Assembly (NCBI RefSeq): GCF_045037415.1
Contig: NZ_CP173438.1
Direction: 5' to 3' (one strand)
Source of the DNA: Escherichia coli
Lineage (GTDB): Bacteria; Pseudomonadota; Gammaproteobacteria; Enterobacterales; Enterobacteriaceae
DNA: 64,000 nucleotides
Part shown: positions 3,434 to 54,329 of the stretch, one piece after another
Numbering within the stretch: the stretch's first letter is position 1
Layout: the number at the start of each line of letters is the position of its first letter
Notes under the pieces: generated by a model
Told to the model about the DNA's origin: nothing
The model's database searches: none
The model's input: the letters and a program-made list of their open reading frames with translations, nothing else
Translations under genes and position numbers: made by a program

Positions 3434-3543
3434 TCATGAGACTATTCTAACCGCTAAGCACAGAAAAGCACTCCCCTTTTGTGCGGTCAGCTTTGCGTGG
3501 CGTTCGTTTTCCGTCACAATAAGACTTTTGCCAGGACATTGTT

Positions 3544-4332
3544 ATGCAGGCCGAAATCCTTCTCACCCTTAAGCTCCAACAAAAATTATTCGCCGACCCG
3601 CGCCGCATTTCGCTACTAAAACACATTGCGCTTTCCGGTTCCATTAGCCAGGGAGCGAAAGATGCCGGTATCAGCTATAAAAGCGCCTGGGATGCCATTA
3701 ACGAGATGAATCAGTTAAGTGAGCATATTCTGGTTGAGCGCGCAACAGGCGGTAAAGGTGGAGGCGGCGCAGTACTGACCCGCTATGGTCAGCGACTGAT
3801 TCAACTCTATGACTTACTGGCGCAAATCCAGCAAAAAGCCTTTGATGTGTTAAGTGACGATGACGCCCTGCCGCTGAACAGCCTGCTGGCCGCGATCTCA
3901 CGTTTTTCACTGCAAACCAGCGCCCGTAACCAGTGGTTCGGTACCATCACCGCTCGCGATCATGATGACGTTCAACAGCATGTTGATGTCTTACTGGCTG
4001 ATGGAAAAACACGCCTGAAAGTCGCAATTACCGCACAAAGCGGCGCGCGTCTGGGGCTGGATGAAGGCAAAGAAGTGTTGATATTGCTAAAAGCGCCGTG
4101 GGTAGGTATTACTCAGGACGAGGCGGTCGCGCAAAACGCTGACAACCAATTACCGGGTATTATTAGTCATATTGAGCGCGGCGCAGAGCAGTGCGAAGTA
4201 TTAATGGCGCTACCCGACGGGCAAACACTGTGCGCCACAGTGCCGGTAAATGAAGCGACTTCTCTTCAGCAAGGGCAGAATGTCACGGCCTACTTTAATG
4301 CCGACAGCGTGATTATCGCCACGCTGTGCTAA
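3544..4332 (+). CDS. modE: molybdate-responsive transcriptional regulator
   Basis: 262 aa; N-terminal HTH and C-terminal Mop/TOBE domains; divergent from modABC. Confidence 0.95.
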   Translation: MQAEILLTLKLQQKLFADPRRISLLKHIALSGSISQGAKDAGISYKSAWDAINEMNQLSEHILVERATGGKGGGGAVLTRYGQRLIQLYDLLAQIQQKAFDVLSDDDALPLNSLLAAISRFSLQTSARNQWFGTITARDHDDVQQHVDVLLADGKTRLKVAITAQSGARLGLDEGKEVLILLKAPWVGITQDEAVAQNADNQLPGIISHIERGAEQCEVLMALPDGQTLCATVPVNEATSLQQGQNVTAYFNADSVIIATLC

Positions 4333-7160: not shown

Positions 7161-8207
7161 ATGACGCAATTTAATCCCGTTGATCATCCACATCGCCGCT
7201 ACAACCCGCTCACCGGGCAATGGATTCTGGTTTCACCGCACCGCGCTAAGCGCCCCTGGCAGGGGGCGCAGGAAACGCCAGCCAAACAGGTGTTACCTGC
7301 GCACGATCCAGATTGCTTCCTCTGCGCAGGTAATGTGCGGGTGACAGGCGATAAAAACCCCGATTACACCGGGACTTACGTTTTCACTAATGACTTTGCG
7401 GCCTTGATGTCTGACACGCCAGATGCGCCAGAAAGCAACGATCCTTTGATGCGTTGCCAGAGCGCGCGCGGTACCAGCCGGGTGATCTGCTTTTCACCGG
7501 ATCACAGTAAAACGCTGCCAGAACTGAGCGTTGCGGCATTGACGGAAATCGTCAAAACCTGGCAGGAGCAAACCGCAGAACTGGGGAAAACATACCCGTG
7601 GGTGCAGGTCTTTGAAAACAAAGGCGCGGCGATGGGCTGCTCTAACCCGCATCCGCACGGACAGATTTGGGCAAATAGCTTCCTGCCTAACGAAGCTGAG
7701 CGCGAAGACCGTCTGCAAAAAGAATATTTCGCCGGGCAGAAATCACCAATGCTGGTGGATTATGTTCAGCGCGAGCTGGCAGACGGTAGCCGTACCGTTG
7801 TCGAAACCGAACACTGGTTAGCCGTCGTGCCTTACTGGGCTGCCTGGCCGTTCGAAACGCTACTGCTGCCCAAAGCCCACGTTTTACGGATCACCGATTT
7901 GACCGACGCCCAGCGCAGCGATTTGGCTCTGGCGTTGAAAAAGCTGACCAGTCGTTATGACAACCTCTTCCAGTGCTCCTTCCCCTACTCTATGGGCTGG
8001 CACGGCGCGCCATTTAATGGCGAAGAGAATCAACACTGGCAGCTGCACGCGCACTTTTATCCGCCTCTGTTGCGCTCTGCCACCGTACGTAAATTTATGG
8101 TTGGTTATGAAATGCTGGCAGAAACCCAGCGAGACCTGACCGCAGAACAGGCCGCAGAGCGTTTGCGCGCAGTCAGCGATATCCATTTTCGCGAATCCGG
8201 AGTGTAA
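7161..8207 (+). CDS. galT: galactose-1-phosphate uridylyltransferase
   Basis: 348 aa; HPHGQ active-site motif. Confidence 0.97.
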
Positions 8208-46523: not shown

Positions 46524-47834
46524 CTACACCAGCAGCAAAGATATTGCCGGAATATAGGTAATGACCAACAGAAGTAAAATAAGACTGATCAGTAATGGCA
46601 CCGCTTCACGCATAAATTGCCCGACAGAAACCTGTACGGTATTACATACCAGCAGCATCACCGTTCCGACAGGTGGTGATAACGTTCCTAACGATAAGTT
46701 GAGGATCATAATGATGCCAAAATGCACCGGATCAATGCCAAAATGAGCCACCACGGGTTTAAGTAATGGGACTAATATCAGCAGAATGGCACTACCTTCA
46801 AGGAACATGCCAAGCACCAGCAGCAATAGATTGATAATCAATAAAAAGACGTATTTATTATCGGTCAGAGAAGTTACAAACTCCGCAACCGTGATACCTG
46901 CCCGCTCAAGGGAAAATATCCAGCCCAGCGCGGCACTCGCCATAATGATTAACATGACCGATGCCGTGGAACGCGCCGTCTCAGAGAGTGCTGTAAATAC
47001 ATGGCTGATTTTCAGTTCGCGATAAATTACAAAACCAATAAACATTACCAATAATACTGCTACCGCTCCGGCTTCCGTTGGCGTAAAGATATTTGCCCGA
47101 ATACCACCGATAACCGCAACAATTAAGAACAGTGCTGGCCAGGCCTGCACCAGCGCCACTGACACTTCTTTCGGTTTTGGCCAGTGTTCGCTGGAAGGTT
47201 TTAAACCGCGACGAATAGCCACCAACCATACGGTAACGATCAACATGGCGGAGCACAGCAGACCTGGCAGGATCCCGGCCATAAACATGGAGCCGATGGA
47301 GACATCCGCCACCAGTCCGTAAAGGATCAGTGCAATACCCGGTGGAATAATTGGTGTAATCAGCGAACCACTTGCCGTTATCGCCGCCGCAAAGCCACGG
47401 GAATAACCTTTCTGTTCCATTTCCGGCACCATCATGCGCGATAACATTGCGGCATCCGCCAGATTTGAGGCACTGACACCGCCCATCATGGTACTGACCA
47501 GAATATTAGCCCCACCCAGGCCACCGCGCATTCTGCCAATCAACACGTTGGCAATTTGCAAAATACGCGCGGCAATACCGGTATAGCTCATTAACGTGCC
47601 TAATAAGATAAAAAACGGAATAGCTAACAGCGAAGGGGTTTGCGTCGTGGCAATCAAACGCTGAATTGCCACCATTAACGGCACATTTGAATAGCAAAGG
47701 AAGTAGGTCAGAATGCCGCAAAACATCGCCAGCCATACCGGCATATTGATAAATAAACAGACGAACATAAGCGGAATGATCATCAGCCAGTTATCCAGCC
47801 AGCTTCCCGCCAGTAATTCACTCAATGCTGTCAT
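46524..47834 (-). CDS. TRAP transporter large permease subunit (DctM family)
   Basis: 436-aa polytopic membrane protein; 1-nt overlap with upstream DctQ-like gene. Confidence 0.85.
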   Translation of the reverse strand: MTALSELLAGSWLDNWLMIIPLMFVCLFINMPVWLAMFCGILTYFLCYSNVPLMVAIQRLIATTQTPSLLAIPFFILLGTLMSYTGIAARILQIANVLIGRMRGGLGGANILVSTMMGGVSASNLADAAMLSRMMVPEMEQKGYSRGFAAAITASGSLITPIIPPGIALILYGLVADVSIGSMFMAGILPGLLCSAMLIVTVWLVAIRRGLKPSSEHWPKPKEVSVALVQAWPALFLIVAVIGGIRANIFTPTEAGAVAVLLVMFIGFVIYRELKISHVFTALSETARSTASVMLIIMASAALGWIFSLERAGITVAEFVTSLTDNKYVFLLIINLLLLVLGMFLEGSAILLILVPLLKPVVAHFGIDPVHFGIIMILNLSLGTLSPPVGTVMLLVCNTVQVSVGQFMREAVPLLISLILLLLVITYIPAISLLLV

Positions 47835-48295
47835 TATTCACCTTCTTTGCGTGGCGTTTTCTTGATCAGTTGTAAGGCAGTAAAACAGGCGACACCGATA
47901 GCGCCAACCGTGACGGCAATATCGATCCAAAACCAGGATATTTTTAATATTTGCGTGGTTTTAAAGGCTGTCCCGGCAGCTAATTTCCATGCTGACCAGG
48001 CCATGACCACCAGCAAAATAATAGACATCAGAGAGACTAAAAACGCTAATATACGTTGCCCGCGTGAAGTAAGTGCATCGGCTAAAAATGGAATCGATAA
48101 ATGGGTATTATCTCGTTCAGCAACAACCGCACCAAACATGACTACCCAAATCATTAATAAACCGGAAACCTCTTCTGTCCACTGTAATGGCATATGAAAA
48201 CAGTAACGCATTATTACCGCAGCAATGGTCATGATTACCAATATAAAGAGCGTTAATACCGCAGCAACTTCAATCATTTTCCCTAAAAGACGCAT
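47834..48295 (-). CDS. TRAP transporter small permease subunit (DctQ family)
   Basis: about 153 aa with 4 predicted TM helices; start set at MRLLGKM (GAGG RBS) rather than ORF-track start at 48331. Confidence 0.75.
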   Translation of the reverse strand: MRLLGKMIEVAAVLTLFILVIMTIAAVIMRYCFHMPLQWTEEVSGLLMIWVVMFGAVVAERDNTHLSIPFLADALTSRGQRILAFLVSLMSIILLVVMAWSAWKLAAGTAFKTTQILKISWFWIDIAVTVGAIGVACFTALQLIKKTPRKEGE

Positions 48296-48354
48296 AAACA
48301 CCTCTGCTCTTAACGGTCGGTGCCGAAACACCGACCAGTCCTTATGCCATGAAG

Positions 48355-49323
48355 TTATTTCAGCTGTTGCTGAATAGTGTCATACAAACCAGGGGTCCAT
48401 TCCGGGAATTGTTGATAGACTTTTAAGGCTTTTTCTTTGAAAGGGGCGACGTCAGGATAGATGATTTCCACGCCCTGCTCCTGCATGGTTTTCAACATTG
48501 TCGCATCCTGCTCAGTGGTAATTTTCTGGCTATATAAACCAGCTTCATACGCTGTCTGGTGAATAATATCTAACTGCGCAGGTGTCAGGGTACTGAAAAA
48601 CGCTTCGCCACCCAACCATAATGATGTATTGGTCAGATAGTTCACCATTGACAGATATTTCGCCTGCTCATGCAGCTTTTGCCCATAGAGAACAGAAACC
48701 GGGTTTTCCACACCATCGATCATCCCCTGAGTCAGCGCCGGATAAACATCTCCCAGCGGCATTGGTGTTGGGGTTGCGCCCATCGCTTCGATAGCTTTAA
48801 TCTGCATGACGTTATTCGGCACGCGGATCTTCATCCCTTTCAAGTCTTCAGGTGTACGAATCGGTTTTTTAGCAATGATCTGCCTGGTACCGTACAGATA
48901 GTTGCTCATGACAATATGCACACCTTTTTCCCGTAGTTTCTGTTCTTTTTGTTTAAACCAGTCACTGGCATAAATCGCAAACAGTTTCTGCGGATCTTCG
49001 GTTAAATAAGGCCCAAACAATATTCCCAAGTCTGCATCGTAGTCAGTTAAAAATCCTACATCACTGATGGTGATAATATTCATCCCCATCAACGCTTGTT
49101 CAGTAATATCTTGTTTAGAACCTAACTGTGAACTTGGGTAAAGTTCGAAAACAATATCTCCATTGCTTTTTTTCTTCACAAGTTCTGCCCAGTGCTTCAC
49201 TACTGTATCCGCTGGCTCGCCGGGGTTACTTTCATAGGCGATTTTGATAGTTACCGGTGCGGCATTCAGCATCGGACTAAATAAAGCTAAAAGAAATAAA
49301 AGTGGTGTCAGTAATTTTTTCAT
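48355..49323 (-). CDS. TRAP transporter periplasmic solute-binding protein (DctP family)
   Basis: 322 aa; signal peptide MKKLLTPLLFLLALFSPMLNA; DctP-like length and organisation. Confidence 0.85.
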   Translation of the reverse strand: MKKLLTPLLFLLALFSPMLNAAPVTIKIAYESNPGEPADTVVKHWAELVKKKSNGDIVFELYPSSQLGSKQDITEQALMGMNIITISDVGFLTDYDADLGILFGPYLTEDPQKLFAIYASDWFKQKEQKLREKGVHIVMSNYLYGTRQIIAKKPIRTPEDLKGMKIRVPNNVMQIKAIEAMGATPTPMPLGDVYPALTQGMIDGVENPVSVLYGQKLHEQAKYLSMVNYLTNTSLWLGGEAFFSTLTPAQLDIIHQTAYEAGLYSQKITTEQDATMLKTMQEQGVEIIYPDVAPFKEKALKVYQQFPEWTPGLYDTIQQQLK

Positions 49324-49350
49324 TATTATTACCTGTAAGAGCTTTATCGA

Positions 49351-50547
49351 TTAACGGGGATCTGCCCGACAGACTGCACTTTTGCTGTAATCAAATGCTT
49401 TATACGTTAAAACAAACTCCTGATGTTCCAGTCGTTCTGCGGCACAATATTGACCGTTGGCGACATGTTCAATCACCTGCATAATATCGTCTGCAATATC
49501 GTCGAGCGTTGCGCCTTCGCTAATTACACGACCGGCATTAACGTCCATATCGTCAGATAAATGCTCCCACGTCTGCGGGTTATTACACACTTTAATAATA
49601 GGAGCGATCACTGAACCAATAACTGAACCGCGACCTGTGGTAAATAACACCATATGACAGCCAGAGGCGATAAGTTCCAGTGCTTCTGAGGAATCGTTAA
49701 TATTCGGATACCCAAAACGAGGTTCACCATCAGGCACCACGTCCATCAACCAAAGCCCAGGAAAGGGCGTTTGTTGCGTCGGCAAAATAACGCCAGCAAT
49801 CAGCGCATCGCCCGACTTGGTATAAGCCCCAAGGGATTTTTCTTCCTGAGTGGTTAAGCCGCCTTCAGCATTACCGTTAGAAAAACTCCCCAGCCCCATC
49901 AAACTGTAATAACGTTCGGCTTTTGTCATTGCCACTTCGATGGCATCACGTGCCTGCGAACTAGCCGCGCGCGACATCATATGCTGCTCACAACCAAGCA
50001 ACTCACCGCTTTCTTCAAAAATACAGGTAGCCCCTTTCTCCAGCAGTTGGTCAAAGGCACGTCCTACTGCCGGGTTACCCGTGATACCACTGGTGCCATC
50101 GGAGCCACCGCAGATAGTACCAACCACCAGGTCGCTCCAGTTCAGGATACAACGCGGTGTATCCGCAAGCTGTTCCAGCATTTCAGCGACCAACTGCTTA
50201 CCCAGAGTAATGGTGTTGGTCGTGCCTTTATTTTCCTGAATGACCAGCGTATGGCACGGTCGCCCACTTTCTCGTACTTCTTGCTCCAGCCGACGGCGAT
50301 CGAAATTCTCGCACCCCAGCGAAATAATCAGTACACCACCTACGTTGCTATGAGTCGCCAGATTTTTCACCAGCCGATAGCCATAATCGCTGGGATAACA
50401 ACCTGAAAAACCAAAATACTGCACGTCGTGACAAGGAAATCCTTCGGCAATCTTTTTAGCGACATGGCTGGCACACTCCACCATAAAGATTACCTGCACA
50501 GTATTACGAATACCTGGTCGACCATTTTGCCGTACATAACCTTCCAT
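49351..50547 (-). CDS. UxaA/GarD-family sugar-acid dehydratase, large catalytic subunit
   Basis: 398 aa resembling the C-terminal catalytic domain of altronate/galactarate dehydratases; start overlaps stop of upstream SAF gene. Confidence 0.75.
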   Translation of the reverse strand: MEGYVRQNGRPGIRNTVQVIFMVECASHVAKKIAEGFPCHDVQYFGFSGCYPSDYGYRLVKNLATHSNVGGVLIISLGCENFDRRRLEQEVRESGRPCHTLVIQENKGTTNTITLGKQLVAEMLEQLADTPRCILNWSDLVVGTICGGSDGTSGITGNPAVGRAFDQLLEKGATCIFEESGELLGCEQHMMSRAASSQARDAIEVAMTKAERYYSLMGLGSFSNGNAEGGLTTQEEKSLGAYTKSGDALIAGVILPTQQTPFPGLWLMDVVPDGEPRFGYPNINDSSEALELIASGCHMVLFTTGRGSVIGSVIAPIIKVCNNPQTWEHLSDDMDVNAGRVISEGATLDDIADDIMQVIEHVANGQYCAAERLEHQEFVLTYKAFDYSKSAVCRADPR

Positions 50548-50858
50548 TATGCTTTTTCCTCTGACTGATAGCCGGCATCATCATGATGAAAAATGGCGAT
50601 GGCATTGCTGGCAAGATTATGGGAATGCACATGTTCACCCATGGCAATATCGCGAGTGGCGTGTCCGATAATGGCGCCGTATTTCAGAATCGAATCACCA
50701 TTGTTCAGCGCTTCGCAGGCCAGTTTGTGCCCCAGGGTAACGGAACTACAGGCCACCATTTCCCCCTCATCCCACCAGACAATATCGCCACTGGCGATGT
50801 CATTCAGCGCGACTACACAGTTATCTTTGGCATGTAGCTTTAACGCACGTTTGCGCAT
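50547..50858 (-). CDS. UxaA-family dehydratase small subunit (SAF domain)
   Basis: about 103 aa from MRKRALKLHAKDNCVVAL with perfect GGAGG RBS; ORF-track start at 50963 judged an over-extension. Confidence 0.7.
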   Translation of the reverse strand: MRKRALKLHAKDNCVVALNDIASGDIVWWDEGEMVACSSVTLGHKLACEALNNGDSILKYGAIIGHATRDIAMGEHVHSHNLASNAIAIFHHDDAGYQSEEKA

Positions 50859-50872
50859 AATTCCTCCGTACA

Positions 50873-51628
50873 TCAGAAGCCGATCAATGCGCCGCCATCC
50901 ACCACCAGCACCTGACCACTGACAAACGCCGCTGCGTCTGAAGCCAGATAAACCGCAGCCCAACCGATATCCTCCGGCTTGCCGAATTTTTTCATCGGGG
51001 TACGACCCAGGATTTTGTTACGGCGTTCGTCATCACCTTCAATGGCCTTACGCAACATTGGTGTATCGATCCAGCCTGGCGCAATACCATTGACGCGAAT
51101 CCCATGAACGGCAAGCTCCGTGGTCATACCGCGAATCATGCCGAGATAGGCTGACTTCGCTGCGCTGTAGCCAGTAACCAGAGGCTGCCCAAGAAATGAG
51201 GTCATCGATGCAGTAAAAAGCACACAGCCTTTACCGCGTTGTTTCATATGCGGCACCAGCGCTTTGGTTAACGCAAATGCGCCGACTACGTGAACGTCGA
51301 GTACTGACTCAAAATCACTGACGCTCATCTCTTCAATCGGTTTTTTGCAGTGATTGCCTGCGTTATTGACCAGGATATCGATAGCCCCGTGTTCGCTAAT
51401 AAGCACATCAACTTTTTCCTGCGCGGCTGCGGTATCCCCGACATCCATTTGTATCCAACTGGCCTGCGACCCCAATGTTCCGGCGGTCGCTTGCGCCAGC
51501 TCGCCGTTCAGGTCAGCAATAATGACCTTCGCCCCGCTGACTATCATGCATTTCGCCATTGCCAGCCCCAGCCCACTGGCTGCACCGGTGATCAACGCGG
51601 TTTTGTTATGTAAAGAAAAAGCATTCAT
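50873..51628 (-). CDS. short-chain dehydrogenase/reductase, KduD/IdnO-like
   Basis: 251 aa; TGAASGLG cofactor motif and YSAAK catalytic motif. Confidence 0.85.
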   Translation of the reverse strand: MNAFSLHNKTALITGAASGLGLAMAKCMIVSGAKVIIADLNGELAQATAGTLGSQASWIQMDVGDTAAAQEKVDVLISEHGAIDILVNNAGNHCKKPIEEMSVSDFESVLDVHVVGAFALTKALVPHMKQRGKGCVLFTASMTSFLGQPLVTGYSAAKSAYLGMIRGMTTELAVHGIRVNGIAPGWIDTPMLRKAIEGDDERRNKILGRTPMKKFGKPEDIGWAAVYLASDAAAFVSGQVLVVDGGALIGF

Positions 51629-51639
51629 GGTGTCGCTCC

Positions 51640-52653
51640 TTAAAGGTCAATGAGGATTTTGGTATACGCGCCGGGATCACTTGCCCAGTCGCTAAAAGCG
51701 TGATCAGCCTGTTCCAGCGGGTAGTGAGCACTCACCAGATTGCTGACCGGATAACGCCCGGACTCCATCAATGCCAGCACGGCACGAAAATCCGCCACGG
51801 TGGCATTGCGCGAACCACGGATATCCAGTTCTTTCATCAGGAACTGCGCACTCTGATAACTCACTGGCTGTTTGGCGTAACCGACATAAACCACACGACC
51901 GCTAAACGCCACCAACCCTGTAGCCTGTTCAATGGTTTGTTGATTACCCACCGCTTCAATCACCACTTCCGGGCCGCGACCGTCATTTAACAGCACCAGT
52001 TCTGCCGCCACGTCACATTGCTGCGAATTAAGAAAACGTTGCGCACCGCATTCCAGGGCAATGTTCCGCTTGCGATCATCAATATCGATAGCAATTACGC
52101 GCGCCCCCATGGCGGATGCCGCGGCGATAGCGCCAAGGCCAATTACCCCACAACCGATAACTGCGACCCATTCACCCACATTAATTTGCGCACGTCTGGC
52201 CGCATGTAGTCCCACGGCCAGCGGTTCTACCAGCGCTAACTCATCAACACTTAAGGCATTACAGACAATGACTTTATGTGCAGGCATCGTCAGTTGTTGC
52301 GCCATCCCCCCCTGACGTTGCACACCAAGAGTTTGGTTGTTTTTACAGGCGTTAGGACGACCGCTCAGACAGGAGCTGCACACGCCACACTCAGTGCAAG
52401 GCAGAACGACCACCCGGTCACCTGGCTTGATCGCCCCTGCCATATCGCCAGTTGCCAGCACCGTGCCGCCAATTTCATGCCCCGGAATACAGGGATAATT
52501 AACCAGCGGATTTAGTCCCCGCCAGGTATTGAGGTCAGAACCACACAGTCCGACACGCTCAACATTGATTAGCACTTCTCCTTTACCGCAGACAGGTTCG
52601 GGGATATCAACAAATCGCGCCTGACTTCCCTGCTCAATGGTTAATGCCTTCAT
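51640..52653 (-). CDS. Zn-dependent medium-chain polyol/sugar-acid dehydrogenase
   Basis: 337 aa; GHE catalytic-Zn motif, structural-Zn Cys cluster, GxGxxG Rossmann motif. Confidence 0.85.
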   Translation of the reverse strand: MKALTIEQGSQARFVDIPEPVCGKGEVLINVERVGLCGSDLNTWRGLNPLVNYPCIPGHEIGGTVLATGDMAGAIKPGDRVVVLPCTECGVCSSCLSGRPNACKNNQTLGVQRQGGMAQQLTMPAHKVIVCNALSVDELALVEPLAVGLHAARRAQINVGEWVAVIGCGVIGLGAIAAASAMGARVIAIDIDDRKRNIALECGAQRFLNSQQCDVAAELVLLNDGRGPEVVIEAVGNQQTIEQATGLVAFSGRVVYVGYAKQPVSYQSAQFLMKELDIRGSRNATVADFRAVLALMESGRYPVSNLVSAHYPLEQADHAFSDWASDPGAYTKILIDL

Positions 52654-52665
52654 TCATTGCTCTCC

Positions 52666-53352
52666 TTACATTACGCCGAAGGTTTCAAAGGCCTGTACCG
52701 TGCTCATGCCATCACTGATGGCTTTGCGCACTTCACTTTCAGTTGCCACTTTTTCCAGGGCCTGGGTAATAACTTCTTTCTCAACAACCTGGGGAATAAT
52801 CAGTAATCCGTCACGATCACCAAACACGATATCGCCCGGATTCACTCGCACGCCGTGAAATTCAATAGGTACGCCGAAGTCGATGACCTTGCCGCGCGGA
52901 CCTTGATCCTGTGCGTAAGTGCCATGACAAAAAGTGGGAAATTTCAATTCAAGAATTTCAGCAGAGTCACGGGCGTAACCATCGAGTACCGCACCTGCTG
53001 CTTTCAGATGCATGGCACGGGTAGACATCAACCCGCCCCACAAGGCATAGCGCAGAGAGCTGCCCGTAGTGATGTAAACATCGTTCTCTTTGAGGGCATC
53101 CAGCGCTTCAAACATGATGCCAAACGGTTTTTCGCCAATCGCCGTCTTACCCGACGTCGATTTGGTTTCGTAAACGTCCGACTCCAGCACCGGCATTGCC
53201 CGGCCTGCCACCACCGTATTCACATCCAGCGGCTTGATTGCCGGAGAAACAAACTGGTGCATATAGCCCAGCGTGTCGAGAATATCGCCAACCACGGCGG
53301 TAAATAGCCGGGTTTTCATCAAAGCAAAAAGTTCGTTATCACTCTTCCACAT
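52666..53352 (-). CDS. RraA-family protein, putative class II 4-hydroxy-2-oxoacid aldolase
   Basis: about 228 aa from MWKSDNEL (ATG with AGGA RBS); RraA-like fold inferred by recall; first gene of the operon. Confidence 0.6.
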   Translation of the reverse strand: MWKSDNELFALMKTRLFTAVVGDILDTLGYMHQFVSPAIKPLDVNTVVAGRAMPVLESDVYETKSTSGKTAIGEKPFGIMFEALDALKENDVYITTGSSLRYALWGGLMSTRAMHLKAAGAVLDGYARDSAEILELKFPTFCHGTYAQDQGPRGKVIDFGVPIEFHGVRVNPGDIVFGDRDGLLIIPQVVEKEVITQALEKVATESEVRKAISDGMSTVQAFETFGVM

Positions 53353-53361
53353 TATTTTCGT

Positions 53362-53390
53362 CCTGTAAGCCTGTTTAACAGGTTTACAGG
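53362..53390. promoter_or_regulatory. nested inverted-repeat candidate operator
   Basis: CCTGTAAGCCTGTTTAACAGGTTTACAGG: two CCTGT arms then two ACAGG arms; inner tGTttaACa fits GntR-type GT-Nx-AC; 10-38 bp upstream of the first operon gene. Confidence 0.5.
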
Positions 53391-53615
53391 GTAAGGAGAA
53401 AAAGCGCACAATACTGCGAAGGGCGTCACGAAAAAGTTGTGTATTTACTATTTCTTCGCCACTCTTTCACACAATATGTCTTTGATTCGCACTGCATGGC
53501 GGGCGCACAGGCGCAGTAGTCTATTGATAATCAAGGGTTCTGGAGGAAAATATGAAGGATACAGTCCCGGTATTCTGGATTTCACCGACCAGGAAAAAGT
53601 ACAACAGGAGTAAAA

Positions 53616-54329
53616 ATGAGTGAGAGTGCGTTATTGACCAGCGTAACGTTATCGTCACAGGTCAAAAATCATATTCTTAATCTGATCGCCGAACAAAAAT
53701 TGACACCGGGGATGCCAGTTCCCAGTGAAGTTCAGCTGATTCAGAAATTGGGTGTCAGTCGGGGTATTGTGCGTGAGGCCTATCGTTCACTTGCCGCCCT
53801 GGGGATTCTGGAAACGCACAGCGGTAAAGTGCCACGAATCAAAAAATTTGATGATGAAGTGCTGCGCGTGGTGTTTGGATTTGCCCTGGCGACCGAACAA
53901 GTGACAACAGAGCAAATTCTTCAAGTACGCCGCTGGCTGGAGTTGGGCGTTGTGGAAGCTGCTGCCCGTAATGGCGAAGAGGAAGATTTTGCTAACCTAC
54001 GGGCTGAAATGGCAAAAATCCGCGAACAGTTCAATGATGTTGAAAGCTTTATCACCCATGATATCCGCTTCCATCAGTTACTTGCCGTTGCCTCAAAAAA
54101 TCCGCTTTTTATGATGTTATTGCAGGCATTACATCAGCAGTTGCGGCAATCCATCCAGGAGGGTTTAAACGCCCAAAGCGATCAGAAAGAGTATGGCAAT
54201 CACATCATCACACTACACCAGAAAATCTGCGATGCTGTGTGTGCCAGGGATGTCGAAACGGCGACTCAAGCCATGAAATCACACTTCGACAGCCCGGTCA
54301 GTGCACTGATCAATAATTCCTCGTCATAA
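53616..54329 (+). CDS. GntR-family (FadR/FCD subfamily) transcriptional regulator
   Basis: 237 aa; N-terminal HTH (KLGVSRGIVREAYRSL), C-terminal all-helical FCD-like domain; divergent from the catabolic operon. Confidence 0.85.
   Translation: MSESALLTSVTLSSQVKNHILNLIAEQKLTPGMPVPSEVQLIQKLGVSRGIVREAYRSLAALGILETHSGKVPRIKKFDDEVLRVVFGFALATEQVTTEQILQVRRWLELGVVEAAARNGEEEDFANLRAEMAKIREQFNDVESFITHDIRFHQLLAVASKNPLFMMLLQALHQQLRQSIQEGLNAQSDQKEYGNHIITLHQKICDAVCARDVETATQAMKSHFDSPVSALINNSSS

Follow-up and report, generated by a model that had tools for sequence, protein, structure and literature searches.

An accessory island inserted in the Escherichia coli chromosome between gltA and abrB, present in 663 of 5426 complete E. 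coli genomes (~12%), carries a predicted sugar-acid operon and, divergent from it, the gene of a GntR-family regulator. A nested inverted repeat lies between the two. The original prediction took this repeat for a candidate operator of the regulator and considered that it could also fold as a hairpin in the 5'-UTR of the operon, which raises the question of whether the repeat is a protein-binding site, for which protein and with which effect on the operon, or whether it acts as RNA. We addressed this question computationally in a 64-kb window covering the island (the whole stretch of DNA that was analysed, 64,000 nucleotides) and in homologous loci of other genomes. A literature search found no published work on the regulator or the island; the BEN2908 paper was set aside, since the TRAP region described there differs from that of the island.

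A four-box palindrome between a predicted operon and a divergent regulator gene

The palindrome and its neighbours are arranged as follows:

46524..53352, minus strand: predicted target operon, encoding an RraA-family enzyme, Zn-ADH, SDR, a split UxaA/GarD-type dehydratase and TRAP DctP/Q/M (annotation and family matches)
52666-53352, minus strand: RraA-family gene, first in the operon, 228 aa (PGAP; N-terminus MW.ND.ELF conserved in orthologues)
53361..53364, minus strand: likely Shine-Dalgarno sequence (SD) AGGA of the RraA-family gene, read from the sequence, 8 nt before the ATG at 53352
53362..53390, no strand: complete four-box dyad-symmetric site, predicted composite operator
53362..53366, no strand: accessory half-site CCTGT on the operon side, 8 bp from the inner box, overlapping the SD of the RraA-family gene
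53370..53382, no strand: core palindrome CCTGT-N3-ACAGG (GT-N3-AC), predicted primary site for one regulator dimer
53386..53390, no strand: accessory half-site ACAGG on the regulator side, overlapping the predicted -35 TTTACA (53383-53388) of a candidate regulator promoter
53616..54329, plus strand: FadR/GntR-family regulator, 237 aa, wHTH and FCD (PGAP), the predicted binder, divergent from the operon

Positions 53362-53390 read CCTGTAAGCCTGTTTAACAGGTTTACAGG, that is, CCTGT-aag-CCTGT-tta-ACAGG-ttt-ACAGG. The four pentamer boxes (53362-66, 53370-74, 53378-82 and 53386-90) start every 8 bp around a dyad centre at T53376, and a repeat search returned two inverted arms of 14 nt (53362-75 and 53377-90), 1 nt apart and 93% complementary (13/14). 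Even with a tolerance of up to 3 mismatches, the 64-kb window contains a single copy of the four-box pattern, and 100 dinucleotide-preserving shuffles of the window gave none; the exact inner core CCTGTNNNACAGG likewise occurs once. The four-box repeat is thus real and non-random, and its description as two copies of CCTGT followed by two reverse complements, giving an inner and an outer palindrome, is exact. The inner core, for which a GT-Nx-AC pattern had been proposed, indeed fits GT-N3-AC as CCTGT-TTA-ACAGG, the typical geometry of the FadR subfamily (PMC4494728). Its assigned place was correct as to the divergent promoter region, which spans 263 bp between the RraA-family and regulator genes, but not as to a position just upstream of the ribosome-binding site: the palindrome ends 10 nt from the RraA ATG, and the gene-proximal outer box (53362-53366) shares 3 nt with the likely SD. 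A GTG-extended open reading frame reaching 53409 was rejected as the first operon gene, as the PGAP start and the conserved N-terminus favour 53352.

The regulator is a wHTH and FCD protein of the FadR subfamily. Pfam PF00392 (wHTH) and PF07729 (FCD) are recorded on a protein 99% identical to it, its nearest solved structures are PdhR, NanR and LldR, and its best NCBIfam matches are NanR, LldR, GlcC and PdhR, every one below its curated cut-off. The FCD domain retains the Asp/His positions D149, H153, H201 and H223. The TRAP solute-binding protein of the operon (48355-49323, minus strand) is very similar to PDB 4ovt (E 1e-142) and next to 4o8m (E 8e-81), which we take to be structural-genomics structures with bound L-fuconate and L-galactonate. 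The likeness to 4ovt is a lead to the substrate of the pathway and to the effector, and together with the retained FCD positions it points to a sugar acid as the effector.

Between the palindrome and the regulator gene, a 23-codon upstream open reading frame (53552-53623, plus strand) has a strong SD, GGAGG, and its TGA stop overlaps the start-codon region of the regulator (ATGAGTGA), an arrangement that suggests translational coupling. The frame is uninterrupted in E. whittamii, in a divergent E. coli and in E. albertii, in the last despite a 15-nt in-frame deletion; this openness in four related Escherichia sequences is not statistically meaningful (~1-in-3 chance per sequence). The encoded peptide is poorly conserved, and a run of 23 open codons is statistically ordinary.

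The core palindrome accompanies the regulator gene across lineages

The conservation search in other genomes, which had been named as a check on the operator proposal, was performed as a genome-collection scan using an alignment of regulator homologues and yielded 34 loci. The divergent pair of RraA and regulator genes was conserved in three Escherichia species, Entomohabitans, Sodalis, Citrobacter amalonaticus, three other Citrobacter genomes, Serratia quinivorans, Aquitalea and two Providencia species. The synteny of the operon was conserved in Escherichia and Entomohabitans; elsewhere it was partial, with an MFS transporter replacing TRAP. CCTGT-N3-ACAGG was found exactly once in every orthologous regulator/RraA intergenic region fetched, covering at least 10 lineages. 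Across the 34 loci (~2.8e5 positions), the exact CCTGTNNNACAGG core gave 17 matches where ~0.3 were expected.

Three exact matches lay outside RraA/regulator intergenic regions, each upstream of an operon. One precedes larBCE in Sodalis and is again adjoined by an ACAGG box, one precedes a PQQ-dehydrogenase/MFS operon directly downstream of a regulator homologue (Bryobacteraceae MAG, Acidobacteria), and one precedes an operon running from an ABC transporter to GntR-RraA (Burkholderiales MAG). The Sodalis copy, CCTGTttgACAGGattACAGG, is a second operator copy in Sodalis sp. dw_96 (locus L006, 8559-8579) upstream of larB-larC-larE, the genes for nickel-pincer cofactor biosynthesis, an indication that a LarA-type racemase or epimerase step belongs to the regulon in that genome.

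In more distant homologues (33-37% identity), the regulator gene is directly preceded by GCTGT-tta-ACAGC or ACCTAT-N3-ATAGGT, and we therefore describe the family motif as ACCTRT-N3-AYAGGT. All ten box positions were invariant among 19 distinct sites, and the central triplet took at least nine forms (TTA, CAA, CAG, AGG, AAG, CAT, TTG, CTG, TGG). The logo was anchored on exact core matches, so that this invariance is partly circular; the independent evidence is the location and number of the matches. The box, CTGT/ACAG, fits TKGT at three of four positions, with C in first position in 19/19 sites, and flank positions -7/-8 are mostly A. No recognisable site was found in the fetched flanks of some homologous loci (L011 Martelella, L015 and L020). 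The distance from the site to the start codon ranged from ~24 to ~142 nt among lineages, which makes its adjacency to the ribosome-binding site an unconserved detail of Escherichia.

Within E. coli, at least 28 nt of the 31-mer at window positions 53361-53391 were exactly matched in 659/659 carrier genomes, in one copy each; 114 of these diverge by 1-5% over the surrounding 1.8 kb, yet retain the site. Citrobacter amalonaticus has its core centred in a perfect palindrome with 23-bp arms (ACACACTCATCATATACACCTGT cag ACAGGTGTATATGATGAGTGTGT; locus L007, ~3527-3575), far longer than in any other lineage, with an RNA fold of -38.7 kcal/mol.

The outer boxes keep an 8-bp register

We scored the outer boxes in 26 flanks at all offsets between -40 and -5 from the dyad centre, counting as a match at least four of five positions of CCTGT. 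At the exact 8-bp register, 14 of the 26 flanks carried a box; the other 34 offsets gave 0-2 flanks each. Providencia rettgeri has, on one side, a third direct CCTGT box 8 bp past the outer box and hence five boxes in register (locus L014, 3824-3860).

A second cassette was found at an independent location, between metA and aceB, in three E. coli genomes (E105, PE164 and F2_81). It contains RraA, an MFS transporter in place of TRAP, Zn-ADH, SDR, split UxaA and a regulator 62% identical to the one studied here, and its site (locus L036 of E105, 7740-7768) is a perfect four-box palindrome, CCTATaaaCCTGTcaaACAGGtttATAGG, with CCTAT as the outer box. Because the core is common to both cassettes, cross-talk would be possible should they ever co-occur.

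A blind scan of a metagenome collection with the pattern CCTRT-N3-CCTGT-N3-ACAGG-N3-AYAGG gave 10 matches. All ten adjoined a GntR homologue (down to 27-29% identity) and nine an RraA homologue; the outer spacers in these matches were often mutually non-complementary. Judged from these comparisons, the predicted operator is an invariant core with accessory CCTRT half-sites in a strict 8-bp register that co-occurs with the regulator gene.

Candidate promoters and a CRP-like site

Three candidate elements were placed next to the palindrome:

53383..53412, plus strand: candidate sigma-70 promoter towards the regulator, TTTACA-18-CACAAT (9/12, a consensus match only), operator centre at ~-43
53388..53393, minus strand: candidate -10 TACCCT of the operon promoter (our own reading, of low confidence, absent from the promoter-scan calls)
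53415..53430, no strand: CRP-like site TGCGAagggcgTCACG (8/10), 46.5 bp from the operator centre, at ~-41.5 if the candidate -10 is real

On the regulator side, equivalent promoters with the operator centre at -42 were predicted in Entomohabitans (TTGATA-17-TATCAT) and Sodalis (TTTACA-17-GATAAT). This geometry, with the operator at -42/-43 and the -35 over the outer box, fits auto-repression and also allows FadR-like activation.

On the operon side, the consensus scan found no convincing promoter in E. coli, and matches on the operon strand were rejected, their -10 overlapping the start codon; the position of the site relative to the transcription start of the operon is for this reason an estimate. 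The last three bases of the candidate -10 are the first three of the outer box, and related sequences have TATCCT (two Escherichia variants) or TAGCCT (Entomohabitans) at this place. Promoter positions differ between lineages, so that no universal distance between operator and transcription start can be derived.

The CRP-like site near the candidate operon -10 is a weak lead. Matches of this kind numbered 18 in the window where 27 were expected, and were thus not enriched; Entomohabitans has a CRP-like site, TGTGCacagggTCACG (locus L005, ~3899-3914), at the identical 46.5-bp offset despite diverged intervening DNA.

Promoters predicted with good scores overlap the site: in Sodalis, a -35 TTGACA lies inside the core, and in the Bryobacteraceae MAG the site falls within the spacer of a predicted TTGACC-18-TAGAAT. 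More generally, a core with TTG as its central triplet contains the consensus -35 hexamer TTGACA (ccTGT-TTG-ACAgg), so that operator and -35 coincide, as in L006 (3567-3579), L036 (7748-7760), L040, L042 and L046; the triplet of the E. coli window, TTA/TAA, forms no -35 hexamer in the core.

Alternative roles of the repeat

A different role would be that the element acts mainly as RNA: a hairpin in the RraA 5'-leader would mask part of the SD or make the mRNA more stable, with no involvement of the GntR protein. In E. coli the hairpin is thermodynamically real: a 43-nt leader segment folds with -16 kcal/mol (z -4.8), none of 200 shuffles folds as well, and the 3' arm includes AGG of the SD. 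Strong hairpins are also predicted in Providencia (-17.4 kcal/mol) and C. amalonaticus, and the outer pairs show two-sided changes that preserve pairing (85% of cells paired, a level reached in 0/500 shuffles). A dyad-symmetric protein site predicts such two-sided changes equally, however, and the pair-count test does not discriminate between the two. As a conserved function, the hairpin foreseen in the original prediction found no support: in four of eight lineages (Entomohabitans, Citrobacter sp., Serratia and Aquitalea; z -0.6 to -1.6) the extended structure folds no better than shuffled sequence. What is universal is a 5-bp stem of invariant sequence, which is uninformative for RNA and would be unexpected across phyla under a constraint on structure only. 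Moreover, the site overlies a predicted -35 or spacer, and would escape transcription, in Sodalis, E. coli E105, L040 and the Bryobacteraceae MAG; its distance from the start codon is variable, and the motif always accompanies the regulator gene, even where the structural genes differ. Rfam gave no match at E <=1 for 53150-53750 on both strands. From the z-scores of the lineages, the short invariant stem, the variable distance, the untranscribed sites and the Rfam result, we take the hairpin to follow from dyad symmetry and to be at most a lineage-specific side effect in Escherichia; a mainly RNA-based function appears improbable.

If the element is bound by protein, its binder might be a protein other than the neighbouring regulator, such as CRP, LexA, TyrR or similar, or the palindrome might be due to chance or be a remnant of a mobile element. 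Its CTGT/ACAG and TGTAA/TTACA words superficially resemble the half-sites of LexA (consensus CTGT-N8-ACAG) and TyrR (TGTAAA-N6-TTTACA), but the spacings here are N3, N11, N19 and N13 and fit neither; a CRP reading of the palindrome was rejected for the same misfit of spacing. With a site that is single-copy per genome, tracks a GntR homologue across phyla and is absent from all 100 shuffles, we hold these origins to be very improbable. Another alternative concerns the direction of regulation. FadR-subfamily members include activators and dual regulators, among them GlcC and FadR at fabA/fabB, and repression is therefore a proposal. The regulator could bind the site and activate, or act dually, stimulating its own promoter from ~-42 as FadR does at fabA; the regulator-side promoters predicted in three genera place the operator centre at -42/-43 in a class-II-like position. 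These promoter calls are, however, consensus matches of 9-10/12, the E. coli -10 is lost in E. albertii, and a second candidate regulator promoter (53524-53551) lies far from the site. The spacing of 10 nt to the RraA ATG leaves no room for activation of the operon in Escherichia, and occlusion is favoured by the overlap of the accessory box with the -35 hexamer itself. Activation or dual action is thus unlikely.

A working model for the element

We propose that the adjacent regulator binds at 53362-53390, which the comparisons above make likely: the core is invariant across at least 10 lineages while spacer and flanks vary, and the motif also accompanies regulator homologues where the structural neighbours differ. 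The 29-bp element is, with similar likelihood, the operator of the divergent regulator, as originally proposed, by which this FadR-subfamily protein would control the RraA/ADH/SDR/UxaA/TRAP sugar-acid operon. Somewhat less likely, but still probable, is that the regulator represses this operon.

In the model, a single regulator dimer would bind the core in the way of FadR/DgoR, each half-site taking one winged-helix domain. Additional subunits or dimers would be brought in by the accessory boxes, so that ~29 bp of DNA or more would be occupied. In Escherichia, the bound complex would lie over the SD and probably over the operon promoter's -10/start region at one end and over the -35 of the candidate regulator promoter at the other, so that the operon, and possibly the regulator gene too, would be repressed. 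A carboxylate effector, most likely a sugar acid or keto-deoxy acid taken up by the TRAP system, would bind the C-terminal FCD domain and cause release from the DNA. The RNA hairpin would be a by-product of dyad symmetry that might add some occlusion of the SD in Escherichia.

We further speculate that a two-fold-symmetric higher-order complex of this canonical FadR-type regulator, a dimer of dimers or three dimers, is nucleated by the CCTRT boxes in their strict 8-bp register (four boxes, or five in Providencia) and forms without a NanR-like N-terminal extension. Such a complex is conceivable, if rather doubtful. If true, it would make the "additional boxes" of 2015 a general and mechanistically distinct mode of oligomeric binding for a clade that reaches from Proteobacteria to Acidobacteria.

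As far as its sequence tells, the element very probably belongs to an ordinary class of genetic switches, set apart by the unusual regularity of its four boxes, and the finding leaves the current understanding of GntR regulation unchanged. Its value lies in a concrete predicted operator (ACCTRT-N3-AYAGGT, with accessory boxes 8 bp out) for an uncharacterised regulator of an accessory sugar-acid pathway. With this motif the regulon can be delimited in other genomes, and larBCE is already linked to it in Sodalis; the motif could also aid in finding the effector and serve as the basis of an inducible expression system. In addition, the regular layout offers a convenient system for the role of accessory half-sites, a question left by the 2015 comparative study.

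Comparison with known GntR-family operators

Motifs of the FadR subfamily are A/T-rich palindromes with TKGT/ACMA boxes, typically GT-N3-AC (consensus TKGT-N3-ACMA), and where a divergon has a single site, it lies a little closer to the structural operon; in 13 FadR groups, further half-sites of weaker kind occur 7-12 nt away from the centre, with their function left open (Suvorova et al. 2015, PMC4494728). The site described here resembles the operators of FadR, PdhR, LldR, DgoR and ExuR in that it is a dyad with central GT-N3-AC, beside the regulator gene in a divergent region and closer to the structural operon. The adjacent gene encodes a PF00392 and PF07729 protein, the site leaves a phylogenetic footprint, and accessory half-sites are found in the range of 7-12 nt, the outer boxes being centred 12 nt out. 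It differs in its box, CCTGT (CTGT) versus TKGT, and in that the accessory boxes of Escherichia are perfect copies of the core half-site, which results in a 29-bp nested palindrome. The exact sites of this regulog were not found in the portion of the supplementary tables of PMC4494728 that was searched.

Like the regulator studied here, E. coli DgoR is a FadR-subfamily regulator of sugar-acid metabolism with an FCD effector domain, and in its dgo operator more than one dyad element overlaps the promoter, implying more than one dimer (PMC11705089). DgoR has two adjacent inverted repeats (of the TTGTAGTACAA type), whereas the extra half-sites are here nested symmetrically around one core; in addition, dgoR is the first gene of its operon, while the regulator gene here is divergent.

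The sites of AnsR, a further regulog of the FadR subfamily, are of nearly identical type, ACCTGT-N3-ACAGCY in the part of the RegPrecise/Suvorova supplementary data that was consulted, and the recognition-helix segments, GVSRSVIREALRS (AnsR) and GVSRGIVREAYRS (regulator here), are similar. As far as these data extend, AnsR forms a separate orthologous group with a different effector and different target genes, and no four-box layout is evident for it.

NanR is the best NCBIfam match of the regulator, below cut-off, and the two systems share short boxes repeated at ~8-9 bp. On (GGTATA)3, three NanR dimers bind side by side to direct repeats with boxes ~8-9 bp apart, and cooperativity requires a 32-residue N-terminal extension (PMC8012715). 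The regulator here is without such an extension: its residues 9-228 align to NanR 29-248, which leaves ~8 residues before the aligned region. Moreover, the three direct repeats of NanR stand against a 2+2 inverted array around a canonical palindrome; a third direct box is carried only by Providencia rettgeri, and the three-direct-repeat arrangement is not found here. By its predicted architecture, the element would work like a FadR/DgoR-type operator with accessory half-sites and not like one of the NanR type.
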